Below, piece by piece: positions 3,075 to 13,484 of a stretch of DNA of 46,405 nucleotides. This DNA is from a virus (taxonomy: Duplodnaviria; Heunggongvirae; Uroviricota; Caudoviricetes). The stretch's first letter is position 1; every line of letters begins with the position of its first letter. Where the stretch lies: the IMG/VR virus record IMGVR_UViG_2687453454_000004, one strand, 5' to 3'. The position numbers and the translations under genes are program-made. Below the pieces are notes generated by a model. The model was given only the letters and a program-made list of their open reading frames with translations, was not told the origin of the DNA and searched no databases.

Positions 3075-3105
3075 GTTCATCATCTCTGGACACCATTCAC
3101 TTGTA

Positions 3106-3135
3106 TTGACTTTAAGATCATTAAATTGTAATAAT
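3106..3135 (+). promoter_or_regulatory. Putative sigma70 promoter for the RT module
   Basis: TTGACT (3106-3111), 17-bp spacer, TG-extended TAATAA (3129-3134); predicted start about 3142, just before the structured leader. Confidence 0.35.
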
Positions 3136-3140
3136 TCAAA

Positions 3141-3275
3141 GGGATGGGGCAGGTTTTTCCTCTTGCGCATGCAAGGGCGGCTCTGATAATGAACAGTAAT
3201 ATTTTACTGTTGAGCTTATGCTCACTGATCCTGCCGGGCAGGATGTTCAACGGTTCCAATATATCCTGCCCCTTC
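3141..3275 (+). ncRNA. Candidate structured leader / ncRNA of the RT module
   Basis: 8-bp inverted repeats ggggcagg (3146-3153) and cctgcccc (3265-3272) flank about 110 nt containing four hairpins (3162-3175, 3193-3210, 3212-3223, perfect 17-bp palindrome 3228-3244); no ORF. Confidence 0.25.
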
Positions 3276-3296
3276 CGCTTTTAAAAAGGATCTTTT

Positions 3297-3848
3297 ATGC
3301 ATGACAATATTTGGTTTACATATAAAGCACGTATCCAAGCGCACCATCGACTAGAATGGCTTGAAAAACACTCTCAATTTATCCTCGTTTGGTATGCTAT
3401 ATTGAGTGCGGTACTTTCAATTGTAACGTTGCGATTTCCAAAGGTTCTAGGAGATAATACAGATGTCGTTGCGGCGATACTTTCAGTGGCTCTACTGGGT
3501 ATTTCTCTGATCGTATCTAACCTAGATTTTCGTGGTCGAGCAATAGCCATGAGAAGGAATTATATTGCACTACAGCGACTCTATTTTGACATTACCACCA
3601 GTCAACAGTTATCTCTTGAACAGAAAGAAAAATATTTTAATTTGCTCAATGAGGTTGAGAATCACCGTGACATAGATGATAAAATTTCAAGGGTAACTCA
3701 AGTTGGACTTAAGACGAGGATCCCCACACAAAAAGAAAAAATAATTGTTATTTTATGGATATTACTTCGAATATTTATTACTGCCGCACTTTATATACTC
3801 CCATTAATATATCTTTGGATTGACTATGACTGCAAGCAGAATTTTTAA
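3297..3848 (+). CDS. Multi-pass membrane protein, SLATT-like putative pore-forming effector
   Basis: 183 aa; AAGGA RBS; hydrophobic helices at about residues 27-46, 57-76 and 150-176 with a soluble middle segment; 3' end overlaps the RT start; AT-rich; SLATT assignment is an inference. Confidence 0.6.
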   Translation: MHDNIWFTYKARIQAHHRLEWLEKHSQFILVWYAILSAVLSIVTLRFPKVLGDNTDVVAAILSVALLGISLIVSNLDFRGRAIAMRRNYIALQRLYFDITTSQQLSLEQKEKYFNLLNEVENHRDIDDKISRVTQVGLKTRIPTQKEKIIVILWILLRIFITAALYILPLIYLWIDYDCKQNF

Positions 3849-5196
3849 AAAGTCATTCTCGAAAAAAAATCTTCTAAAAGTATACTCTGAAAAAATCAAA
3901 GAATCAGGAGCGATTGGCATAGATCGGATTCGCCCATCAAAACTTGATTTGACAATAAAAAATGAGATCACTTTCATTTTTGAAAAGGTTAATTCTGGCA
4001 ATTACAAATTTACAGCATATAAAGAAAAATTAATATCTAAAGGCGCTAACTCTACACCCAGACAGATTTCCATACCAACTGCTAGGGACAGAATTACTCT
4101 TAGAGCTCTCTGTGAATGCCTTACGGAAATATATCCTAAGTCCAGATTAAAACTACCACATACAGTAATTGACTCATTGAAAGAAGCATTAAACAACAGT
4201 CTATATGCTGAATATGCAAAAATAGATCTTAAAAGTTTCTATCCTTCAATTGAACATAAATTGATAATTAATGCAATAAAAAATAAAATTAGAAAAAAAG
4301 AAATTAGACAGTTAATAACATCATCATTAATCGTGCCTACTGTAAGTGGAACCACAGGAAGCAAAGGTATCCCTAATAATACCAGAGGAGTACCTCAGGG
4401 ATTAGCGATATCAAACATTTTAGCTGAAATATCACTATCTAATTTCGATGATGAAATCAATAAAATGCATGACATATGGTACATGCGATACGTTGATGAC
4501 ATTCTTATTTTAACACCAAAATATCAAGCAACAAAAATAGCTTCTCATATCATTGATAAGCTTCAATCATTAAATTTAAACCCACATCCATTAAATGAAG
4601 AGAACTCAAAATCCAAAGTAGGCAGCTTGGATGAAAGTTTCAACTTTTTGGGCTACCACATAAAAAATCGAGAATTATTGATAAAACATGAGAGCATTCT
4701 TAGATTTGAGTCATCCTTAGCAAAAATTTTTACTGCATATAGACACGCTCTACTACAAGCTAAAAATAAGCGCGATAAAGAACGAGCTGTTGCATATTGT
4801 CAGTGGAAACTAAATCTTAGAATTACGGGATGTGTGTTTGAAGGTAAACGATTGGGATGGGTATCGTACTTCTCACAAATAACGTCAACAGCTCAACTTC
4901 GAGCTGTTAATCATACGATCAATAATCTTATCCGCCGATTCGGCCTTTCATCAGAAATAAAACCAAAGTCTTTGATTAAAACTTTCTATGAACTCCGCAG
5001 GGGTAGAGCGGAGACTTTTAAATACATACCTAACTTTGACAATCTACATATATCTCAGAAACGAGAAATTGTTTCTATGTGGATAGGGAAAGAGAATGAA
5101 AAAAAACTTAGCAATAGTGAAATAGAGAGAAAATTTAAATTTAAAATTGCGAAATCAGTAAAAGAGCTTGAAGAGGACATTTCAGGGATATCATAG
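3820..5196 (+). CDS. Reverse transcriptase (unclassified: retron-like or UG/Abi-like)
   Basis: 458 aa (ORF track starts at TTG 3820; first ATG at 3826); RT motifs RQISIPTARDR, KIDLKSFYPSI, GVPQGLAISNILAEISL, YMRYVDDILIL (YVDD), FNFLGYHI; about 150-aa C-terminal extension. Confidence 0.9.
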   Translation: MTMTASRIFKKSFSKKNLLKVYSEKIKESGAIGIDRIRPSKLDLTIKNEITFIFEKVNSGNYKFTAYKEKLISKGANSTPRQISIPTARDRITLRALCECLTEIYPKSRLKLPHTVIDSLKEALNNSLYAEYAKIDLKSFYPSIEHKLIINAIKNKIRKKEIRQLITSSLIVPTVSGTTGSKGIPNNTRGVPQGLAISNILAEISLSNFDDEINKMHDIWYMRYVDDILILTPKYQATKIASHIIDKLQSLNLNPHPLNEENSKSKVGSLDESFNFLGYHIKNRELLIKHESILRFESSLAKIFTAYRHALLQAKNKRDKERAVAYCQWKLNLRITGCVFEGKRLGWVSYFSQITSTAQLRAVNHTINNLIRRFGLSSEIKPKSLIKTFYELRRGRAETFKYIPNFDNLHISQKREIVSMWIGKENEKKLSNSEIERKFKFKIAKSVKELEEDISGIS

Positions 5197-5308
5197 ATAT
5201 GTAATCCATTAAATCCTTTATATATAAAGCAATAAACACACTATTTAAATTCACAAATCAGCCGCAGTATCCTGCCATGACAAGTTGCTGCGGCATATCA
5301 CAAAACGA

Positions 5309-5491
5309 TTACTCCATAACAGGGACCGCAGGCCACTCAATATCAGGTGCAGTTGATGTATCAACACGGTTCAGCAACACCCGATACTTTTTCCAGGCTT
5401 CCAGCAATGAGGTTTCTTCCTCCGTTGCGATCTCCAGCTCAACAACAGTCTGAACGTACCGGGAACAGCCTCCTTCAGAGCTTGAAGGATA
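5309..5491 (-). pseudogene. 3' remnant of a tail fibre assembly gene (tfa)
   Basis: Start-less frame encodes ...[42 protein letters not shown], matching the conserved Tfa C-terminus from memory; in frame directly after the stf stop codon. Confidence 0.65.
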
Positions 5492-8400
5492 TCAATGTTC
5501 GCTTCCTGTTAACTGCCGGACAAGTGCAACCAGTTCGCTTACCTGATTTTCCAGAGTGCTGATCCGGGTGTCTGCTGTTGCCAGATTTTGACGTAGCGTT
5601 GTGTTTTCCTCTTCCAGCGCGGTAACGCGATCATCTGTTTCACGGGCGACCTGGACAAGTAAACCAGTCACCGCCGCATAATCAACATTGAGGTAACGCG
5701 TTTCTTCGCGTAGCTCGTTGCCATCAATGGTCGGACCCTGCAATTCTTCACCGTAACGAGTAAACGATCCTACGGCTTCCGGTAGCGCCTCCATTACTTC
5801 CTGTGCAATAACGCCAGCATAAGGAAGGCCGTTTTCCTTGAGCGTGTAGGTGTACCCGTTCATTTTGCGGATTGCTTTCGTCGCGTCGCTGATAACGAGA
5901 ATATCGTCTTTAAGGTCGCGGTCTGATGACTGATTCAGCGTTGTGCAATTAATAGCGCCATTTACATCAAACAACTGGCCTGCTGGCGTTCTTTGCGCAT
6001 AAAACAGATACGCAGCAGACGTTCCAACCTCAAAAACGTTTTGTCGATCACTTGAACCCCATACACTGATGTTAAACGGTAGTTCTGCATTACCTGCGTT
6101 CTTTAAAACAAAACGATTGCCAGTCCCTGACTGTTTTCTAATTACTAAATCAGCAGTTGAGTTAACCTCATCTTTGTTGATGGTTAGCGCCTGTGCTGTA
6201 GCACCGTTGACAGTACCGCTTAGTAGTTGCACCGCGCCATCATCGCCATTTAACAGCACTTGAGCGCTGCTTCTGTGGTTTTTAAGGCACAACATTTTTC
6301 CCGTGTTTTCCGATGTACCTACTGACCACGCCGAATTGGTTCCAGTGCTATCAACACCGCGCACAGCACAATTCATACTACTGTAATCTGACGTACTCCC
6401 CAGCACATCAACACGCCCGCCGCCTAATTTTGATGGAGTCGTCGAGGTTAACGACCTGACGGTCACATCCTGATTCCATCCTGAAACAACATGCTCGCTC
6501 CATGCTGTCCAATTACCATTAGTAACAAAACGAACATGCACGCGTCCTTTGTCGCCGCTAATCAGCGTTTGCATGTTTATATAATCTGAATCACTAACCT
6601 TACGAATTGACTCTACACGAAGCAAAAAGTTGCCGCCTACGCCGTCAGGCTTATTGGTAATATTCGAACCGCCTCCGGCAGTTTTGCAGTGATAGTATTT
6701 AACTGAACCTTTATCCGTGAACTTAATGATAAGGTCATTAAGATCGATAGTCATGCCTTCAATGGCTTCCGGCTCGATAGGCCCAGACATACCTGCGTTA
6801 AATGTGGCAAGGTCAGAAAATGTTGTTTTGCCGCCTACCGTTACCCCGCTATCGAGTATTGCTTGTGTAATTACTTTGCTGTTTTTTGTGTGGTCAGAAT
6901 AACCACCAAAATACAAATCACCGTCACCGTATATGCCGAGATATTTTTGGTCAACGTCATCAACCTTAAACCCAATGGATAAATTTTTAATTGTGTTGTT
7001 GCGCGTTAAAACCAGAGGAGTATGCTGAGATCCTTTTATGCTTACCGTAGTATCATCGGATCTAGTGCTTGTGTTTGCAAATTCTGCTTTTGCGCCTTTA
7101 GTTTTACCCGCTAATGTGAGATCACGGGCTTCAACCATCCCGTCGTGACGAACAATAAAATCACCACTTGATTGACCTTTTGCGTTTTTAGCCCTGATGT
7201 GAACTTCGCCAAGCGTATCAGTATTTGTAGGCGCAAAAATAACGCCGCGTTCCGACTGATCCTCATTTTGGAACCATACATGGGCGGTTCCACTTTTTGA
7301 ACGCAGGAATAGTGAAGGTGTTGCTTTAGTGATCGACAGATTACCTGACATAATGTCGCCGGATTTTTTCACCTGCGCATCGTTAGTTACGTTACCAAGT
7401 CCAACATCCGATTTCGACGGCTTGTATTTGGTTCCGTATAGCTCATTTATGTTAAAAGTACCATTGTTGAGTCTATTATCGTTACTAGAGTAAATCTTTA
7501 CTCTACCGCTTTCGTAATCGATATTAATAGCTGACCACGTATCGCCGCACCGCGAGAATATACCAGAACCGTGGCTGAAAATTGTTGATTCGCTACCTGT
7601 TGGTTTTCCTGACCTCCAGAAACACCCACCTTTCGCCCTTAGCTCTTGTAGTAGTTCCTTATCGGTCATTTTACCATCCAAAACAAGACCGCTACCGCCA
7701 AGACCAAAAGCGCCTATAAGCATAGCATTAGAAAGGCCCAAATCTGCTTTAGTCGGCTTGTTTACCTGGTCGTAAATCCTTACAACGTTGCCTTCAATAT
7801 ATCCAGAAGGCGCGGCGGTTTGCTTAACAAATCCGTCTGGAATGTATAATTCTGTGTTTAGTGTTGTCTGCGCCAGCACCGCAACCTTTGCGTCGTTAAT
7901 AAACGCACCCTGGAATGCCCAAACCTCAATAAAGCCGTCACCTTTAACCAGGCCGTAACGCATCTGGTTGTTATCGGTCAGCCCGGTTGACCCTAAGCGG
8001 CGTATACTCAGATGACGAGAAACATTATCCGCACTAAGCAAAGAAGGCAGACCGCGCGCCGAGATCTCGATAAAGTCAATGTTTCCGTAAGGGGAGCCGT
8101 AGTTACCAGCGTTAGTAACCATTAGCGTTACATGACTTCTGCTGGTTCCAGGATCGGAAAGTTTCGCGATCTTGATGTAAAGAGACTCACTAGCAGTAAC
8201 AACAGGCCAATCGTATTGCGTCATCGGGCTGACGAGTCCCCCGACCTTGTCGAGATATTCTTTCGCCTTGTTCTCTGACGCTTTAGCGTTGGTTTCGCTG
8301 ACCTTTGCTGCTGACTCACTATTTTTCGCGTTGGTTTCTGATTTTTTGGCTGCTGTCGCGGAGTTTGCCGATGCAGTTTGTGAGTCTGCTGCCGCCTGTG

Positions 8401-9253
8401 CGCTGTTATCCGCATTCGTCTCAGACGTTTTTGCGGCCTTCGCGGAATTTCCTGCTGCCGTTGCCGAGGAAGCTGCACTGCCGGCGCTCGAGGCAGCGCT
8501 CGTTTCTGATGATTTTGCCGCCACTTTTGAAGCCGACGCATCCCGGGCTGAGGTGGCAGCTTCTGACGCTTTCGTGGTCGCGGTGGATGCAGATGTGGCC
8601 GCAGATTTTTGTGATGCTGCGGCATTCATTTCCGACGTTTTCGCTGCACCGGCACTGGTGGCTGCCGCGCTTTTTGAAGACTCTGCAGCGGCAGCACTTT
8701 TTGATGCTTCAGTAGCCTTTGCTGATGCCGTTCCTGCGCTGGAAGACGCTGACTGAGCCGACGACGCGGCCTGTCCGGCTGACGTGCTGGCTGCACGTGC
8801 TGAGCCTGCAGCATCAGTCGCACGGGTTGCCGCCTCACGGGCTGATGTGCCGGCATCGCTGGCTGACTTCTTCGCGGCTGCTGTGTTCTGCGCCACTGCG
8901 GACGCGTTACGCGCCACCTCTTCCACCATCAGTTCAAAGCGGCGCAGTGCCTCCGGACGGGCATCATCCTCCGTCATGGCACCGAGAAAATCATTCAGCG
9001 TACCGGGTCGGGAATCTTCATACACGGTGATGGTCCCGGCATGTGACGGCGGGAATCCTTCCACCAACAGAATAACGCTGTACTGACCGTACTCAACGTC
9101 CATGCTGTAACGCCCGGCTTCATCCGGATTTTCAGATGCCACCGTGTTCACCACCACCGTGGTGCTGTTACGTTTTGCTTTCAGCTGGATTGTGCAGTTC
9201 TGTACCGGTTTACCTGCACCGTCTTTCAGTACACCTGAAATCTTTACTGCCAT
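5492..9253 (-). CDS. stf: Side tail fibre with C-terminal intramolecular-chaperone domain
   Basis: N-terminus MAVKISGVLKDG... as in lambda Stf (ATG at 9253; track start 9259); Ala/Ser-rich repeat region; C-terminus (NQSSDRDLKDDI...YTYTLKENG...coiled coil) resembles the self-cleaving S74-type chaperone. Confidence 0.85.
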   Translation of the reverse strand: MAVKISGVLKDGAGKPVQNCTIQLKAKRNSTTVVVNTVASENPDEAGRYSMDVEYGQYSVILLVEGFPPSHAGTITVYEDSRPGTLNDFLGAMTEDDARPEALRRFELMVEEVARNASAVAQNTAAAKKSASDAGTSAREAATRATDAAGSARAASTSAGQAASSAQSASSSAGTASAKATEASKSAAAAESSKSAAATSAGAAKTSEMNAAASQKSAATSASTATTKASEAATSARDASASKVAAKSSETSAASSAGSAASSATAAGNSAKAAKTSETNADNSAQAAADSQTASANSATAAKKSETNAKNSESAAKVSETNAKASENKAKEYLDKVGGLVSPMTQYDWPVVTASESLYIKIAKLSDPGTSRSHVTLMVTNAGNYGSPYGNIDFIEISARGLPSLLSADNVSRHLSIRRLGSTGLTDNNQMRYGLVKGDGFIEVWAFQGAFINDAKVAVLAQTTLNTELYIPDGFVKQTAAPSGYIEGNVVRIYDQVNKPTKADLGLSNAMLIGAFGLGGSGLVLDGKMTDKELLQELRAKGGCFWRSGKPTGSESTIFSHGSGIFSRCGDTWSAINIDYESGRVKIYSSNDNRLNNGTFNINELYGTKYKPSKSDVGLGNVTNDAQVKKSGDIMSGNLSITKATPSLFLRSKSGTAHVWFQNEDQSERGVIFAPTNTDTLGEVHIRAKNAKGQSSGDFIVRHDGMVEARDLTLAGKTKGAKAEFANTSTRSDDTTVSIKGSQHTPLVLTRNNTIKNLSIGFKVDDVDQKYLGIYGDGDLYFGGYSDHTKNSKVITQAILDSGVTVGGKTTFSDLATFNAGMSGPIEPEAIEGMTIDLNDLIIKFTDKGSVKYYHCKTAGGGSNITNKPDGVGGNFLLRVESIRKVSDSDYINMQTLISGDKGRVHVRFVTNGNWTAWSEHVVSGWNQDVTVRSLTSTTPSKLGGGRVDVLGSTSDYSSMNCAVRGVDSTGTNSAWSVGTSENTGKMLCLKNHRSSAQVLLNGDDGAVQLLSGTVNGATAQALTINKDEVNSTADLVIRKQSGTGNRFVLKNAGNAELPFNISVWGSSDRQNVFEVGTSAAYLFYAQRTPAGQLFDVNGAINCTTLNQSSDRDLKDDILVISDATKAIRKMNGYTYTLKENGLPYAGVIAQEVMEALPEAVGSFTRYGEELQGPTIDGNELREETRYLNVDYAAVTGLLVQVARETDDRVTALEEENTTLRQNLATADTRISTLENQVSELVALVRQLTGSEH

Positions 9254-9264
9254 ATTCACCCCAC

Positions 9265-9290
9265 AAAAAAGCCCGCCTGAACCGGCGGGC
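9265..9290 (-). terminator. Intrinsic terminator-like hairpin between lom and stf
   Basis: gcccgcc-N6-ggcgggc with T-run on the minus strand. Confidence 0.5.
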
Positions 9291-9317
9291 TGTCATAACA
9301 CTGTGTTACCTGGCTAA

Positions 9318-9917
9318 TCAGAACTTATAACCGACACCCACGATGAACCCGTCAGTGCGCCAGTTGCCACTGCCGGAGCCTTCATAAGCGACATCAACGG
9401 CCACGGATTCGGTCGGGTTAAACTGCACGCCAGCTCCCCACGCCAGAGAGGTGTTACTGTGGCGAGCGTCATCACTTCCGGTCAGCACGTCGTGCGTTTT
9501 TCCCTTGTTGTCAGTTACGCGGAGATAATCCCCGGAAAAAGTCGACACACGGCTGTAAGCCACGCCTGCCATCGCATACGCGCTGAACCATTCATTCACA
9601 CGTACAGACGGCCCCGCCATCACGCTGAACCAGCGGTTACGCACGGAATCCTCATGCCAGCGGGTATCGCTGTAATGGGTCAGCTGGCGATTCTTGTCTC
9701 CTGCATAGCTGAATGACGTCACCAGCCCCAGTGTGTCCGTAAACTCATAACGGTATTTCACGTTAATCCCGTTCAGATCATCGCTGCCGGGAACGTTGGT
9801 CCGGGCATGAAGATACCCCGCGCTCAGCGTGGACTGATGTTCAGATGCCCATGCAGGCGCACCGGATACGGCCAGACAAATGGCTGCGGACAAAATGGCG
9901 GCATAAAGTTTACGCAT
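9318..9917 (-). CDS. lom: Outer-membrane protein Lom (Ail/Lom family)
   Basis: 199 aa with signal peptide and C-terminal ...GVGYKF beta-barrel end; GAGAGG RBS; lambda position between J and stf. Confidence 0.85.
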   Translation of the reverse strand: MRKLYAAILSAAICLAVSGAPAWASEHQSTLSAGYLHARTNVPGSDDLNGINVKYRYEFTDTLGLVTSFSYAGDKNRQLTHYSDTRWHEDSVRNRWFSVMAGPSVRVNEWFSAYAMAGVAYSRVSTFSGDYLRVTDNKGKTHDVLTGSDDARHSNTSLAWGAGVQFNPTESVAVDVAYEGSGSGNWRTDGFIVGVGYKF

Positions 9918-9986: not shown

Positions 9987-12900
9987 TCAACGAATACTGA
10001 TGCCGGAAGCAGCTTTTTTGGTCACAATCACCGTACAGTCGGTGATATTACCTGCCCACTGATTGCCTTTATGGAAAACCTTAAACTCCAGAGTGACGCT
10101 TCCCCTGCCACTCGGCATATCAATAACCGCACTGTAGCTACCGGGAATGGCCCCTTTAGTTTCTCTGGATGCGATTAATACACCGTTTTTGCGAACTTCA
10201 AAACCATAACCCGTGTATCTTGTACCTCCCGGGTTATTACCACTTCCCGGATCGCTATACGCTATTCCGTTAAAGATAATGGGTGGAATAATGATTTGAC
10301 GGTCAAAGTTATGATCATCGCTGATGGTGACTGTAACCGTCCCGTTTGGTGTTTCCGTGTTACCCCACGTACCAGCCTGTTTCGGGAATGATTTGGATAC
10401 AGCTTTAACGAAGTCACCTCTGACCTGAGTCGCCTCCAGCATGCCCTTAATCGTACAGTTTTCATTTACCGTGACATTGTTGAGCGTCCCGGCGTTCGCA
10501 TTCACGTTACCGCTGATATCGGCATTTTTCGCCGTCAGCCGCCCGTCCGGTGTCAGGGAAAATACCGGAGGATTACCGCCGCTGGTAATGGTGGGAGCCG
10601 TCAGGCGTTTCAGGAACACTTCGTTCATGAATATCTGATCGCCCTGACCAACAAACATCGGCTTTGTGTTGCCATTCGCAGGATTAATCATCGCAATCCT
10701 GTCTGCCGCCAGCAGCACCTGACTCTGCATGCCGTCAGGGGTGTTCTCAATACCGGCACCAATACCCGCGATATAAAGGCGTCCGTCCTGCATCTGCTGC
10801 AGCTTCACAGCCCACATGCTGTTCAGGTTATTATTTGTATCAACCTGAACCTTCTGTATCTGCTGAATTGCCGCACTCTGGTCTTCCAGTTTCTTATTGA
10901 CGGTCTGTGTGATTTCATTGCTGACATCCGTAATGGATGTCCTGATTTCAGCCAGGTCAGGCGCAAGCTGACCGTTATCAATCTGCGTCCACAGCTCCTG
11001 AGCCAGATGGGTTTTCCCTATCTCGCCTTTGAAAAAATCCAGATAGCCGGATGCGTCATCACTCGGCTGACCAACAGCCTCCACGAATGCCGATTTGCCA
11101 ACGGTGTTCACACTGCGAACGTAAAAATAATAATTATGGCCCGGTTTGATATTGATACTGGCGGCTATCCAGTACAACGCCGTACCAAGATAGCGTGCTG
11201 TGGTTTCAACCTGCCTGATATCCGCAATCCGCTTTTCCGAGAACCAGAACTCAAACTGTACCGTCGGATCATAAACCGCAAGATGCGGCGTGGCGGTTAT
11301 CTGAAAATAGCCCGGCGTCAGCTCAATCCGCGACGGCGCTGCCGGTGCGGCAATCCGGAACGATACCGACGCCGGATCGCCCTGCTGTCCCCATGCATTT
11401 ACTGCCCGGACTGTCAGCCTGTAGTTCCCCAGAGCCAGTTGTGTGAAGCGGTAAGTGGTTTCCGTCGTCCGGGCCGTGCTGACCAGCCGCTCACTGCCGT
11501 CATCCGCTGCCACGGTCAGGCGAAGCATAAAGCTCACCCCCTTCACCACCTTCGGCGTGTCCCAGCGGGCCAGCACCTGGTATTCCCCGCTGTCTGCGGT
11601 GACTTCGGCGGTCAGATGCTGCACTGCTGGCGGCGTGACACCATTCACCGTGCCGCTCTGGTCGCCGTCAAAGTGCGCCCCGTTATCCACGATGGCCTCT
11701 TTTTCCGGTACATGCTGCACGGCGGTGATGGCATACGTGCCGTCATCGTTCTCACGGATACTCACGCAGCGGAACAGGCGCTGGCGCAGCGTCGGCAGCT
11801 TCAGCCCCCATACGCTGTATCCGGCAACGCCGTCAGGAACACGGCTCACTTTTACCTTCACGCCGTCGGTGACGGACTGGACCTCCACGCTGACCGGATT
11901 GCCACTTCCGTCAACCAGGCTTATCAGCGTGGTACCGGAAGATGGCAGCGTGATTTCACGGTCGAGCGTCAGCGTCCGGGTCTGGCTGTTTACCGCCAGC
12001 ACGCGCCCGCCGGTGCGGATACCGGCATAGTCATCATCGCAGATTTCAATGACATCGCCCGGTACATGGCGAAGCCCTTCGGCACCCACGCTGAAGTCCA
12101 CGGTCTGCGTTTCCAGCAGTTCTGTTTTAATCAGCCACAGCCCGGCGCGGTGTGCCTGCCCCCGGCTGGTACAGCCAAAAGCATCCATCTTCGTGACGTT
12201 ACGACCGTAACGGGCAATGGCCTGCGTGTCCTCCACAAGCTCTGTCGCCGTCTCCCAGCCGTTATTCGGGTCAATCCAGTTCACCTCAACGGCATTATGG
12301 CGGTCCTTCAGGGCGCTGAAGCTGTAGCGGAACGGCGCACCATCATCCGGCATCACCACATTACTGCGGTTATAGGTCCACACCTTATCCGACGGTCGGT
12401 CCTGCACGAACGTCAGCGTCTGCCCGTTCCATACCGGCATACAGCGCATCGCAGAGCAGAAATCACTGAGCACATCCCACGCCTTGCGCTGTGTGGTCAG
12501 GTACGCATTACAGGTGATGCGCGGCTCTGTGCCGCCAAAACCGTCCGGCACCGACTGATCGCAATGCTGGCCGATGACATACAGCGCCCATTTGTCCACA
12601 TCCGCCGCACCAAGACGTTTCCCCATGCCGTAGCGCGGATGGGTCAGCATATCCCACAGACACCAGGCCATGTTGTTGCTGTATGCTGGCTTAAACGTTC
12701 CGTCCCAGATACCGCTGTATTGCCGCGTCTGCGGGTTATAGTTCGACGGCACCTGCAGAATGCGCCCGCGCAGATGATAATTACGGCTCACCTGCTGGCT
12801 GCCGAACTGCTCCGAATCCACCTGCACGCCGACCAGTGCCGTGTTCGGGTAGCACTGTTTCACATCGATGATTTCGGTGTATGACGACCAGAGCGTTTTG

Positions 12901-13484
12901 TTCTGCAGCTGGTCTGTGGTGCTGTCCGGCGTCATCCTGCGCATCCGTATATTGAACGGGCGCGGCGGCAGGTTACCCACCACCACCGAGGCCAGATACT
13001 GCGAGGTGGTTTTGCCCTTAATGGTGATGTCTTTTTCCGTCACCCAGCCACCATTACGCTGGATCTGAACCAGCAGGCGGACTTCCGACGGATTCCGGTC
13101 CCCCTTTGAGGTGGTTTCCACCAGTGCCTGCACGCCGAAGGTAAAGCGCAGACGGTCGATGTTTGCAGACGTAATGGTGCGGGTGATCGGCGTGTCATAT
13201 TTCACTTCCGTACCCAGCACCGTCTCGGAGCCGGAGGATTCAAACCCCTCCGGCGGTGTCTGCTCCTGCTCACCGGCACGGAACACCACCGTGACACCGG
13301 AGATGTTGGTATTCCCCTCAGTGTCCAGCACCGGCGTACTGTTCAGCAGCACGCTTTTTAATCCATCCACCGGACCTTCAATCGGCCCTTCGCTGATGGC
13401 ATCGATCACACTCAGCAACTGCGTGGACTTCAGGTTGTCCTTCGCTTCGCGCGGGGTATGCCCCTTACTGCTACCTTTACCCAT
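9987..13484 (-). CDS. J: Host-specificity / tail tip protein J
   Basis: 1165 aa, N-terminus [22 protein letters not shown]... and length match lambda gpJ. Confidence 0.95.

Follow-up and report, generated by a model that had tools for sequence, protein, structure and literature searches.

A probable recombination scar of receptor-binding-module exchange in the side tail fibre locus of a lambdoid prophage

The stf locus of the lambdoid prophage in IMG/VR record IMGVR_UViG_2687453454_000004 (46,405 nt, hereafter the window) combines a lambda-type fibre N-terminus, a distal tip that carries its own Peptidase_S74 chaperone domain, and the orphaned 3' end of a tail fibre assembly gene, tfa. We consider it very probable that this locus is a recombination scar, left when receptor-binding modules were exchanged in the side tail fibre of a lambdoid phage. 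The junction is single, ancestral and old, neither specific to this prophage nor recent in it. The arrangement is ordinary and already known: it is common in Escherichia coli, in about one in seven complete genomes, and stands in public annotation, RefSeq/PGAP already recording both the S74 fibre and a truncated tfa pseudogene. The features on which the argument draws are collected in Table 1.

Table 1. Features of the stf-tfa locus and of the adjoining cargo, in window coordinates
Feature	Position	Strand	Extent and basis
stf, side tail fibre gene	5492..9259	minus	uninterrupted ORF, 1255 aa from GTG; ORF list
Lambda-type N-terminal anchor and Ala/Ser-rich repeat shaft	8413..9259	minus	aa 1 to ~283
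Further repeat shaft	8280..8412	minus	common to mEp460 and PhiR70_1, not lambda; blastn, protein alignments
Central module	6461..8279	minus	aa ~328-933; nucleotide and protein comparisons
Distal tip before predicted cleavage site	5927..6460	minus	aa ~934-1111; mEp460 alignment, tblastn
Intramolecular chaperone domain (Peptidase_S74, PF13884)	5495..5926	minus	aa 1112-1255; predicted coiled-coil end
Spacer	5456..5491	minus	36 nt, no tfa homology; alignments
tfa 3' remnant, pseudogene	5309..5455	minus	48 codons and TAA; Tfa residues 147-194 of 194
Hairpin GCCGCAG...CTGCGGC after tfa	5261..5294	minus	RNA folds, alignments
DRT10 defence cassette, not part of fibre	3075..5196	plus	convergent with stf
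Candidate ncRNA	~3138-3281	plus	upstream of SLATT gene
SLATT gene	3297-3848	plus	PADLOC RTasSLATT 1.5e-56; Pfam SLATT_5
UG17 reverse transcriptase	3820/3826-5196	plus	PADLOC RT_UG17 1.1e-158 over full profile; Pfam RVT_1

The preliminary description of this locus held that stf starts like its lambda counterpart, and every comparison agrees. Pfam phage_tail_N (PF08400) matches Stf aa 3-136 (5.4e-72), the alignment with lambda Stf residues 1-284 runs at 86% amino acid identity, and the lambda tail fibre N-terminus in PDB 9e7m matches the same region at 3e-51. The gene order is J-lom-stf (J at 9987-13484, Lom at 9318-9917), with stf following J and lom as in lambdoid late operons; this location and the phage_tail_N domain identify a lambda-type Stf. 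The ATG equivalent to that of lambda lies at 9253 and the TGA stop at 5492-5494. The stf stretch of E. coli YJ3 shows zero differences from the window; the PGAP split of stf in that genome into a pseudogene and an S74 protein is an annotation artefact, since a single unbroken ORF spans both features. A scan of fibre and remnant against NCBIfam gave no meaningful match.

Beyond the shaft, the fibre is a composite. The central module, which is exchangeable and probably has a part in binding the receptor, is present in Ayreon and in three E. coli loci (L007, L010 and L011), is missing from mEp460 and PhiR70_1, and is of a type found in approximately 16 of 51 IMG/VR contigs; a weak match to the tail fibre of phage SU10 (7z47) covers aa 509-592. 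The distal tip shares 82% amino acid identity with mEp460 starting at aa 931, and by tblastn the distal 330 aa of Stf resemble, at 35-65% identity, the lateral fibres of virulent coliphages, T5-like and rV5-like phages among them.

That Stf ends in an intramolecular-chaperone-type domain, a second element of the preliminary description, was borne out by a domain search. Peptidase_S74 matches aa 1112-1163 at 2.4e-12 and 47.4 bits (curated cut-off, 22 bits), and the alignment begins at profile position 1 with S1112. The domain thus opens on S1112-D-R-D-L-K1117, a catalytic-type serine with a lysine five residues on. The Stf motif SSDRDLK aligns with SSDRRIK of S16 gp37 (6f45_A), and its Ser-x4-Lys spacing equals that of Ser1264 and Lys1269 in T5 pb1, whose chaperone domain undergoes autoproteolysis at Ser1264 with Lys1269 (PMC4690869). 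We predict, on this basis, that the scissile bond of Stf is Ser1111-Ser1112 and that Lys1117 is the general base. PhiR70_1 homology starts at 5935, that is, at the S74 motif, and across module variants no part of Stf is better conserved than the chaperone domain. An AlphaFold2 model of aa 334-1255, computed from a shallow alignment of 10 close homologues (all homologues found were E. coli proteins at 84-97% identity), had a mean pLDDT of 34, with only the terminal helices reaching 74-83, too low to confirm the fold expected of such chaperones, a trimeric coiled coil flanked by an alpha/beta part and tentacle hairpins. By analogy with T5 pb1 and the K1F endosialidase, this Stf would have no need for Tfa. 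The sister prophage of strain fS58a, which has a different S74-type stf in the same dusA prophage backbone and zero tfa sequence, strengthens that proposal.

Downstream of stf lies what is left of tfa. A start-less, in-frame 3' remnant encoding the conserved Tfa C-terminus had been described here, and such a remnant is what we found, although its bounds had been drawn slightly short, at 5309-5440. When the window was searched by tblastn with lambda Tfa, the only match was to residues 147-194 (5455..5312, 90% identity), and no other tfa was found in it. The remnant matches profile positions 86-130 of 131 of Caudo_TAP (1.7e-20); it lacks the first 146 codons and a start codon, where a member of the Tfa family would be full-length (~190 aa) with a start codon of its own, and we therefore treat it as a pseudogene and not as a Tfa. 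PGAP labels 5309-5443 'tail fiber assembly protein, incomplete, missing N-terminus'. The hairpin beyond the remnant sits where lambda and Ayreon have a stronger one, and lambda homology stops inside it, near 5280.

Comparison with relatives locates the breakpoints. In blastn, lambda aligns with the window at 9398-8412 (86%) and again at 5454-5280; mEp460 at 9400-8280 (95%) and 6460-5332; and PhiR70_1 at 9400-8280 (95%) and 5935-5331. Together with Ayreon and PhiR29_1, these alignments put the crossover on the right-hand side within tfa, close to 5455. They support the earlier proposal that a swap of the receptor-binding module truncated tfa, with the qualification that the event is an old and shared one. 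Of 5426 complete E. coli genomes, 802 (about 15%) carry the very same junction. It also recurs in nine further loci examined and in three phage isolates, Ayreon, mEp460 and PhiR70_1, and at least three different central modules accompany it. The spacer, identical in all junction-bearing loci apart from two linked variants, presumably came in together with the S74 module. A 29-nt spacer pattern retrieved 51 IMG/VR contigs, all 51 of which carry junction and tfa remnant, and none of which shows the spacer continuing into non-tfa sequence as a donor would; a nucleotide search of a phage collection returned only Ayreon, mEp460, PhiR70_1 and vB_EcoS-640R1. With no donor context found, we infer the origin of the S74 module solely from its protein-level relatives at 35-65% identity.

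Downstream of the remnant, in a variable cargo slot after tfa, sits a cassette of low GC content (0.31-0.34). It encodes a UG17-class reverse transcriptase with a YVDD motif and an adjoining SLATT protein, the combination that defines DRT10. The region 3100-3296 folds into a long stem with several small stem-loops (z = -3.84), and the DRT10 ncRNA has been described as a long stem bearing several small stem-loops (PMC12632851); Rfam holds no family for the candidate. Other loci carry Avs2, a SAM methyltransferase, a nucleotidyltransferase with SLATT, pinQ, or nothing before dinI in the same slot, and mEp460 has 138 bp in place of window 3075-5331.

This low-GC, foreign cassette directly adjoins the remnant, and its insertion might be blamed for the truncation in place of a fibre-module swap. 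The geometry is wrong, however: the cassette borders the 3' end of tfa, which is intact and keeps stop codon and hairpin, and the missing part is the 5' end, on the stf side. Many E. coli loci, as well as mEp460, Ayreon and PhiR70_1, show the same truncation without a DRT10 cassette, and the cassette is also found with a different stf and no remnant. We regard this explanation as refuted, with next to no chance of being right. Another explanation is a remnant that is still expressed and functional, supplying the conserved C-terminal part of Tfa either by read-through of Stf past its in-frame UGA or as a 32-aa peptide from a TTG at 5407 with GGAGG 11 nt upstream. The 61 codons after the TGA (5491-5309) are in the stf frame, 57 of 58 loci keep the remnant as an open frame, and the five changes that separate it from lambda tfa between LEIAT and the stop are without exception synonymous. 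Shared frame, however, has a chance of 1 in 3, relatives share it by common descent, and we discarded it as meaningful; GGAGG and TTG also occur in intact tfa genes and are no adaptation of the remnant. Three quarters of Tfa is gone, we found no conserved start codon, a read-through extension would be attached to a chaperone domain that is itself predicted to be cleaved off, and the S74-type stf of the fS58a sister prophage has no remnant. Private substitutions, moreover, are mostly nonsynonymous (6, against 4 synonymous), and one locus is frameshifted. Repeated copying from functional tfa alleles would itself yield an open frame and synonymous differences. The 58 loci hold 32 remnant haplotypes. 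Middle-block and tip combinations of remnant alleles (a1, a2, c2, c3, b3, b1) form a closed cycle that requires recombination inside the remnant. To judge from these allele blocks, the remnant still recombines with intact tfa alleles, which explains, though it does not prove, its open frame. The remnant behaves as a scar under relaxed constraint, and we hold continued function to be very improbable.

That Ayreon and mEp460 form plaques counts for little, given that lambda-type side fibres are dispensable (lambda PaPa has none) and that the cryptic prophages of E. coli K-12 hosts contain tfa genes. The S74 domain might be degenerate or insufficient, with Tfa supplied in trans by other prophages (most E. 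coli genomes hold several tfa copies, the junction query hitting a median of 2 places per genome), or the fibre might be non-functional cargo, lambda side fibres being dispensable (PMC7291167). Against this stand a 1255-aa ORF that is unbroken in this prophage as in hundreds of genomes (84-97% identity), an S74 match far over its cut-off with the catalytic Ser and Lys conserved, and the degree of conservation of the chaperone domain across module variants, which is what would be expected if it were needed. We judge this reading unlikely. Similarly doubtful is the idea that the tfa 3' fragment and hairpin are selectively kept as a homology 'landing pad', by which lambdoid prophages would trade receptor-binding cassettes of the self-chaperoning kind at one flank and, at the other, defence cargo (DRT10, Avs2, nucleotidyltransferase with SLATT), or that the fragment encodes a small Tfa-derived peptide still in use.

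In the module-exchange scenario that we favour, a lateral fibre tip of the T5/rV5 kind, ending in a Peptidase_S74 intramolecular chaperone, would have taken the place, in an ancestor, of the distal part of a lambda-type stf together with three quarters of tfa, counted from its start. Residues 1112-1255 would drive trimerisation and folding of the fibre tip, and a correctly formed trimer would cut itself at Ser1111/Ser1112 through the Ser1112-Lys1117 dyad, leaving a mature fibre of ~1111 residues. A separate Tfa would then be superfluous and the leftover 48 codons a pseudogene. Three conserved pieces, namely the N-terminal part of stf, its chaperone domain and the 3' end of tfa together with the hairpin, would still offer homology for recombination among co-resident lambdoid prophages. 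Such recombination would have spread the junction widely, and would keep reshuffling the central receptor-binding module on the upstream side and, downstream, the accessory or defence cargo.

Distal modules of Stf help decide which E. coli strains a phage adsorbs to, and this locus is a clear example of lambdoid host-range change by cassette exchange between conserved flanks. A self-chaperoning tip would mean that the cassette need not travel with a chaperone gene, a property useful for engineering chimeric lambda fibres. Nothing here is new in principle, although our literature searches brought up no paper that expressly describes a lambdoid Stf of the S74 type next to a tfa remnant. RefSeq names the prophage relatives 'pyocin knob domain-containing S74 family peptidase' or 'prophage tail fiber N-terminal domain-containing protein'; PGAP annotates the remnant in E. 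coli genomes, whereas the Ayreon and mEp460 records leave it unannotated.

Ayreon (MF807953) matches the whole 4.1-kb stretch of stf and remnant at 98% identity, has the J-lom-stf order and carries different genes after the remnant. mEp460 (JQ182728, NC_019716) has in common the N-terminus, distal tip, chaperone domain, spacer and remnant, as well as the J-lom-stf order and the dinI-int module, but differs in its central module and has no DRT10 cassette. Ur-lambda Stf/Tfa shares the N-terminal 284 residues (86% identical), the position after lom, and the last 48 tfa codons with the hairpin. Its fibre, however, ends in a T4 gp37-like tip, and lambda Stf assembly requires Tfa (PMC7291167); here an S74-bearing tip stands in place of that tip and the first 146 tfa codons. 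With T5 pb1-type S74 fibres the likeness lies at the other end of the protein, in the C-terminal S74 domain, the Ser-x4-Lys dyad at its start and the predicted helical coiled-coil end, and Stf is expected by analogy to fold, trimerise and self-cleave as they do. Identity to the T5-like and rV5-like lateral fibres is, however, no more than 35-55%, and the T5 fibre attaches through T5 p132, whereas this Stf attaches through a lambda-type N-terminus. Receptor-binding domains of T5-like phages, with their chaperone domains, have been exchanged horizontally among Tequintavirus, Gordonclarkvirinae and Wifcevirus (BASEL collection, PMC11990801). The same kind of module moves between unrelated phage backbones in both cases, but the recipient here is a temperate lambdoid siphovirus, and a fragment of the displaced chaperone gene has been left visible.

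Predicted domains assign the N terminus of the side tail fibre to the lambda Stf family and its C terminus to the Peptidase_S74 family of intramolecular chaperones. Pfam places phage_tail_N at residues 3-136 of Stf (5.4e-72), and residues 1-284 share 86% identity with lambda Stf and match the solved lambda tail-fibre N terminus (9e7m; 3e-51), which bears out the lambda-like start proposed in the preliminary description. The domain search of the C terminus suggested there recovered Peptidase_S74 at residues 1112-1163 (2.4e-12; 47.4 bits against a cut-off of 22). The profile begins at S1112 of the motif SSDRDLK, giving a Ser1112/Lys1117 pair spaced like Ser1264/Lys1269, the catalytic pair of T5 pb1 (PMC4690869); the motif aligns with SSDRRIK in the C-terminal part of S16 gp37 (6f45_A). 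In NZ_AP023226, PGAP records stf as two features, a "pseudogene" for the N-terminal part (8276-9253) and an S74 protein of its own (5492-8224). Because the sequence is uninterrupted, this split is artefactual and probably stems from the repetitive shaft. Between lom and the stf start lies a strong hairpin (9270-9291, minus strand) that resembles a terminator, carries a T-run and is also annotated in Ayreon and mEp460; stf expression would thus need antiterminated late transcription.

The 61 codons past the stf stop (5491-5309) continue in the frame of stf and, from residue 13 onward, match positions 86-130/131 of the Tfa profile family Caudo_TAP (1.7e-20). In tblastn, lambda Tfa aligned only through residues 147-194 (5455-5312; 90% identity), with no second match elsewhere in the window, so the start codon and codons 1-146, three quarters of tfa, are absent. 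PGAP labels 5309-5443 in E. coli YJ3 "tail fiber assembly protein, incomplete, missing N-terminus". These results uphold the earlier reading of an in-frame, start-less tfa 3' remnant after stf; its proposed extent needed adjusting, since the fragment reaches slightly further, to 5455. It does not qualify as a functional Tfa.

Features of the fibre region and of the adjoining defence cassette
Feature	Position	Strand	Remarks
Candidate ncRNA	~3138-3281	+	predicted to be structured, upstream of SLATT, z = -3.84
SLATT gene	3297-3848	+	DRT10 partner
UG17 reverse transcriptase	3820/3826-5196	+	YVDD
tfa 3' end, past stop into hairpin	5454-5280		lambda (93%)
36-nt spacer	5456-5491		without tfa homology
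stf stop TGA	5494-5492	-
stf	5492-9259	-	single unbroken ORF, 1255 aa from GTG; lambda-equivalent ATG at 9253
Chaperone domain, spacer, most of remnant	5935-5332		in PhiR70_1 as well (90%)
Distal tip	6460-5936		in mEp460 as well (86%)
Central module	8279-6461		only Ayreon and some E. coli prophages
Further repeat shaft	8412-8280		common to mEp460, PhiR70_1 (95%)
N-terminal anchor and repeat shaft	9400-8412		common to all lambda-type stf (86% nt identity to lambda)
lom	9318-9917	-	between J and stf
J	9987-13484	-	upstream of lom and stf

Alignments and blastn searches against related phages resolved stf into blocks, whose boundaries show that the right-hand crossover of the original swap fell within tfa, in agreement with the earlier proposal that a module swap truncated the gene. 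The homology boundary with PhiR70_1 at 5935 coincides with the predicted cleavage motif, so that the chaperone domain forms a unit of exchange in its own right. Lambda and Ayreon have a stronger hairpin after tfa than the window does.

A 351-nt probe spanning the junction, from the end of the chaperone domain through the spacer to the remnant, was found at a coverage of at least 80% in 802 of 5426 complete E. coli genomes, and the whole of stf plus remnant, at the same coverage, in 403. The same junction is present in mEp460 and PhiR70_1, and Ayreon, isolated on E. coli K-12, carries the entire 4.1 kb of stf and remnant at 98% identity. A scan of IMG/VR for the spacer returned 51 contigs, all of which run on into the remnant, and thus yielded no context that would identify a donor of the S74 module. 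All of these contigs share the chaperone domain and junction; the window-type central module occurs in ~16 of the 51, the others having mostly an mEp460-type or a third central module. The junction is one ancestral event that has since spread, rather than one particular to this prophage. Junction-bearing fibres occupy several chromosomal sites (dusA, near potB, near bioA/ybhB and at ydfJ).

The remnant itself, represented by 32 haplotypes in 58 loci, varies mostly in blocks also found in intact tfa alleles. Three middle-block and three tip alleles combined as a1, a2, c2, c3, b3 and b1 form a closed cycle, which requires recombination inside the 146-bp remnant. Its usually open frame might speak for a function, through read-through of the stf stop or as a small peptide, but copying from functional tfa alleles explains that frame, and the private substitutions in the 58 loci (six nonsynonymous to four synonymous, with a frameshift in one locus) fit relaxed constraint better than purifying selection, although the numbers are small. 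A functional remnant is therefore unlikely. That selection keeps the remnant, whether to anchor recombination or to encode a small peptide, likewise has a low probability.

Divergence between the window and mEp460 begins inside the remnant (left boundary, 5332) and ends at the dinI stop (right boundary, 3074), so the remnant tip and the downstream cargo were exchanged together. That cargo may be DRT10 (in the window), Avs2, a SAM methyltransferase, a nucleotidyltransferase with SLATT, the invertase gene pinQ, or no more than 138 bp before dinI, making the slot a hotspot of variable cargo (loci L007-L011 and L004). In the window, an apparently complete DRT10 defence system with a GC content of 0.31-0.34 fills 3075-5196 (plus strand) between remnant and dinI, and its cassette recurs in 187 complete E. 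coli genomes. Insertion of this cassette as the cause of the tfa truncation is refuted: it borders an intact tfa 3' end, and the same truncation occurs without it. Recent work showed that DRT10 synthesises tandem-repeat cDNA in a manner resembling telomerase (PMC12632851).

Lambda-type fibre tips need Tfa (PMC7291167), and S74 chaperone behaviour is well studied in T5 pb1 and the K1F endosialidase (PMC4690869). From these precedents, the S74 domain with its catalytic residues and strain fS58a, we infer that the fibre would do without Tfa. Strain fS58a (locus L012, 1320-4991) combines the window's dusA prophage backbone and DRT10 cassette with a different S74-type stf (1113 aa; S74 1.4e-13), 3' of which no tfa sequence was found; at the remnant's place stands an unrelated small ORF, membrane-protein-like and disrupted by an internal stop. 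A fibre that is inert, or for which Tfa must be supplied in trans, has a low probability. The viability of Ayreon or mEp460 is no test of independence from Tfa, because plaques form without side fibres and tfa genes are present in laboratory hosts; a structure model of the fibre was of too poor quality to contribute.

The window holds a complete lambdoid prophage of the mEp460 type, inserted at dusA, and is colinear with E. coli YJ3 (NZ_AP023226), from which it differs by 59 substitutions, none in stf. At least 47 of the 59 (47 of the 50 among the differences listed) fall within 1.4 kb of J (11940-13332), which suggests that this central tail fibre gene contains a recombination tract, the two prophages being otherwise near-identical. 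The int gene (1668-2765) beside dusA and a short duplicated dusA fragment marking the right attachment site (45231-45335) delimit a prophage of ~43.6 kb. Rfam matches to C4 antisense RNA (38395-38482; 82.8 bits) and isrK (38507-38583; 59 bits), both on the minus strand and above the gathering score, overlap an annotated ash-family gene in the early region. Near the right prophage end, a Panacea domain-containing protein (43989-44977, minus strand) adjoins a small hypothetical gene, with which it may form a toxin-antitoxin pair.

The fibre mosaic, the self-chaperoning principle and the horizontal exchange of tips are established knowledge. RefSeq already annotates this exact sequence and both features, the S74 fibre and the tfa pseudogene, and published phage genomes contain the arrangement. 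Our literature search found no paper explicitly discussing the tfa remnant, a gap in detail that does not make the locus something new in kind. At the protein level, the last 330 residues of Stf resemble the lateral fibres of T5-like, rV5-like and other virulent coliphages (35-65% identity), a likeness that fits the "T5-like RBD with IMC" modules whose horizontal exchange has been described for BASEL phages (PMC11990801).
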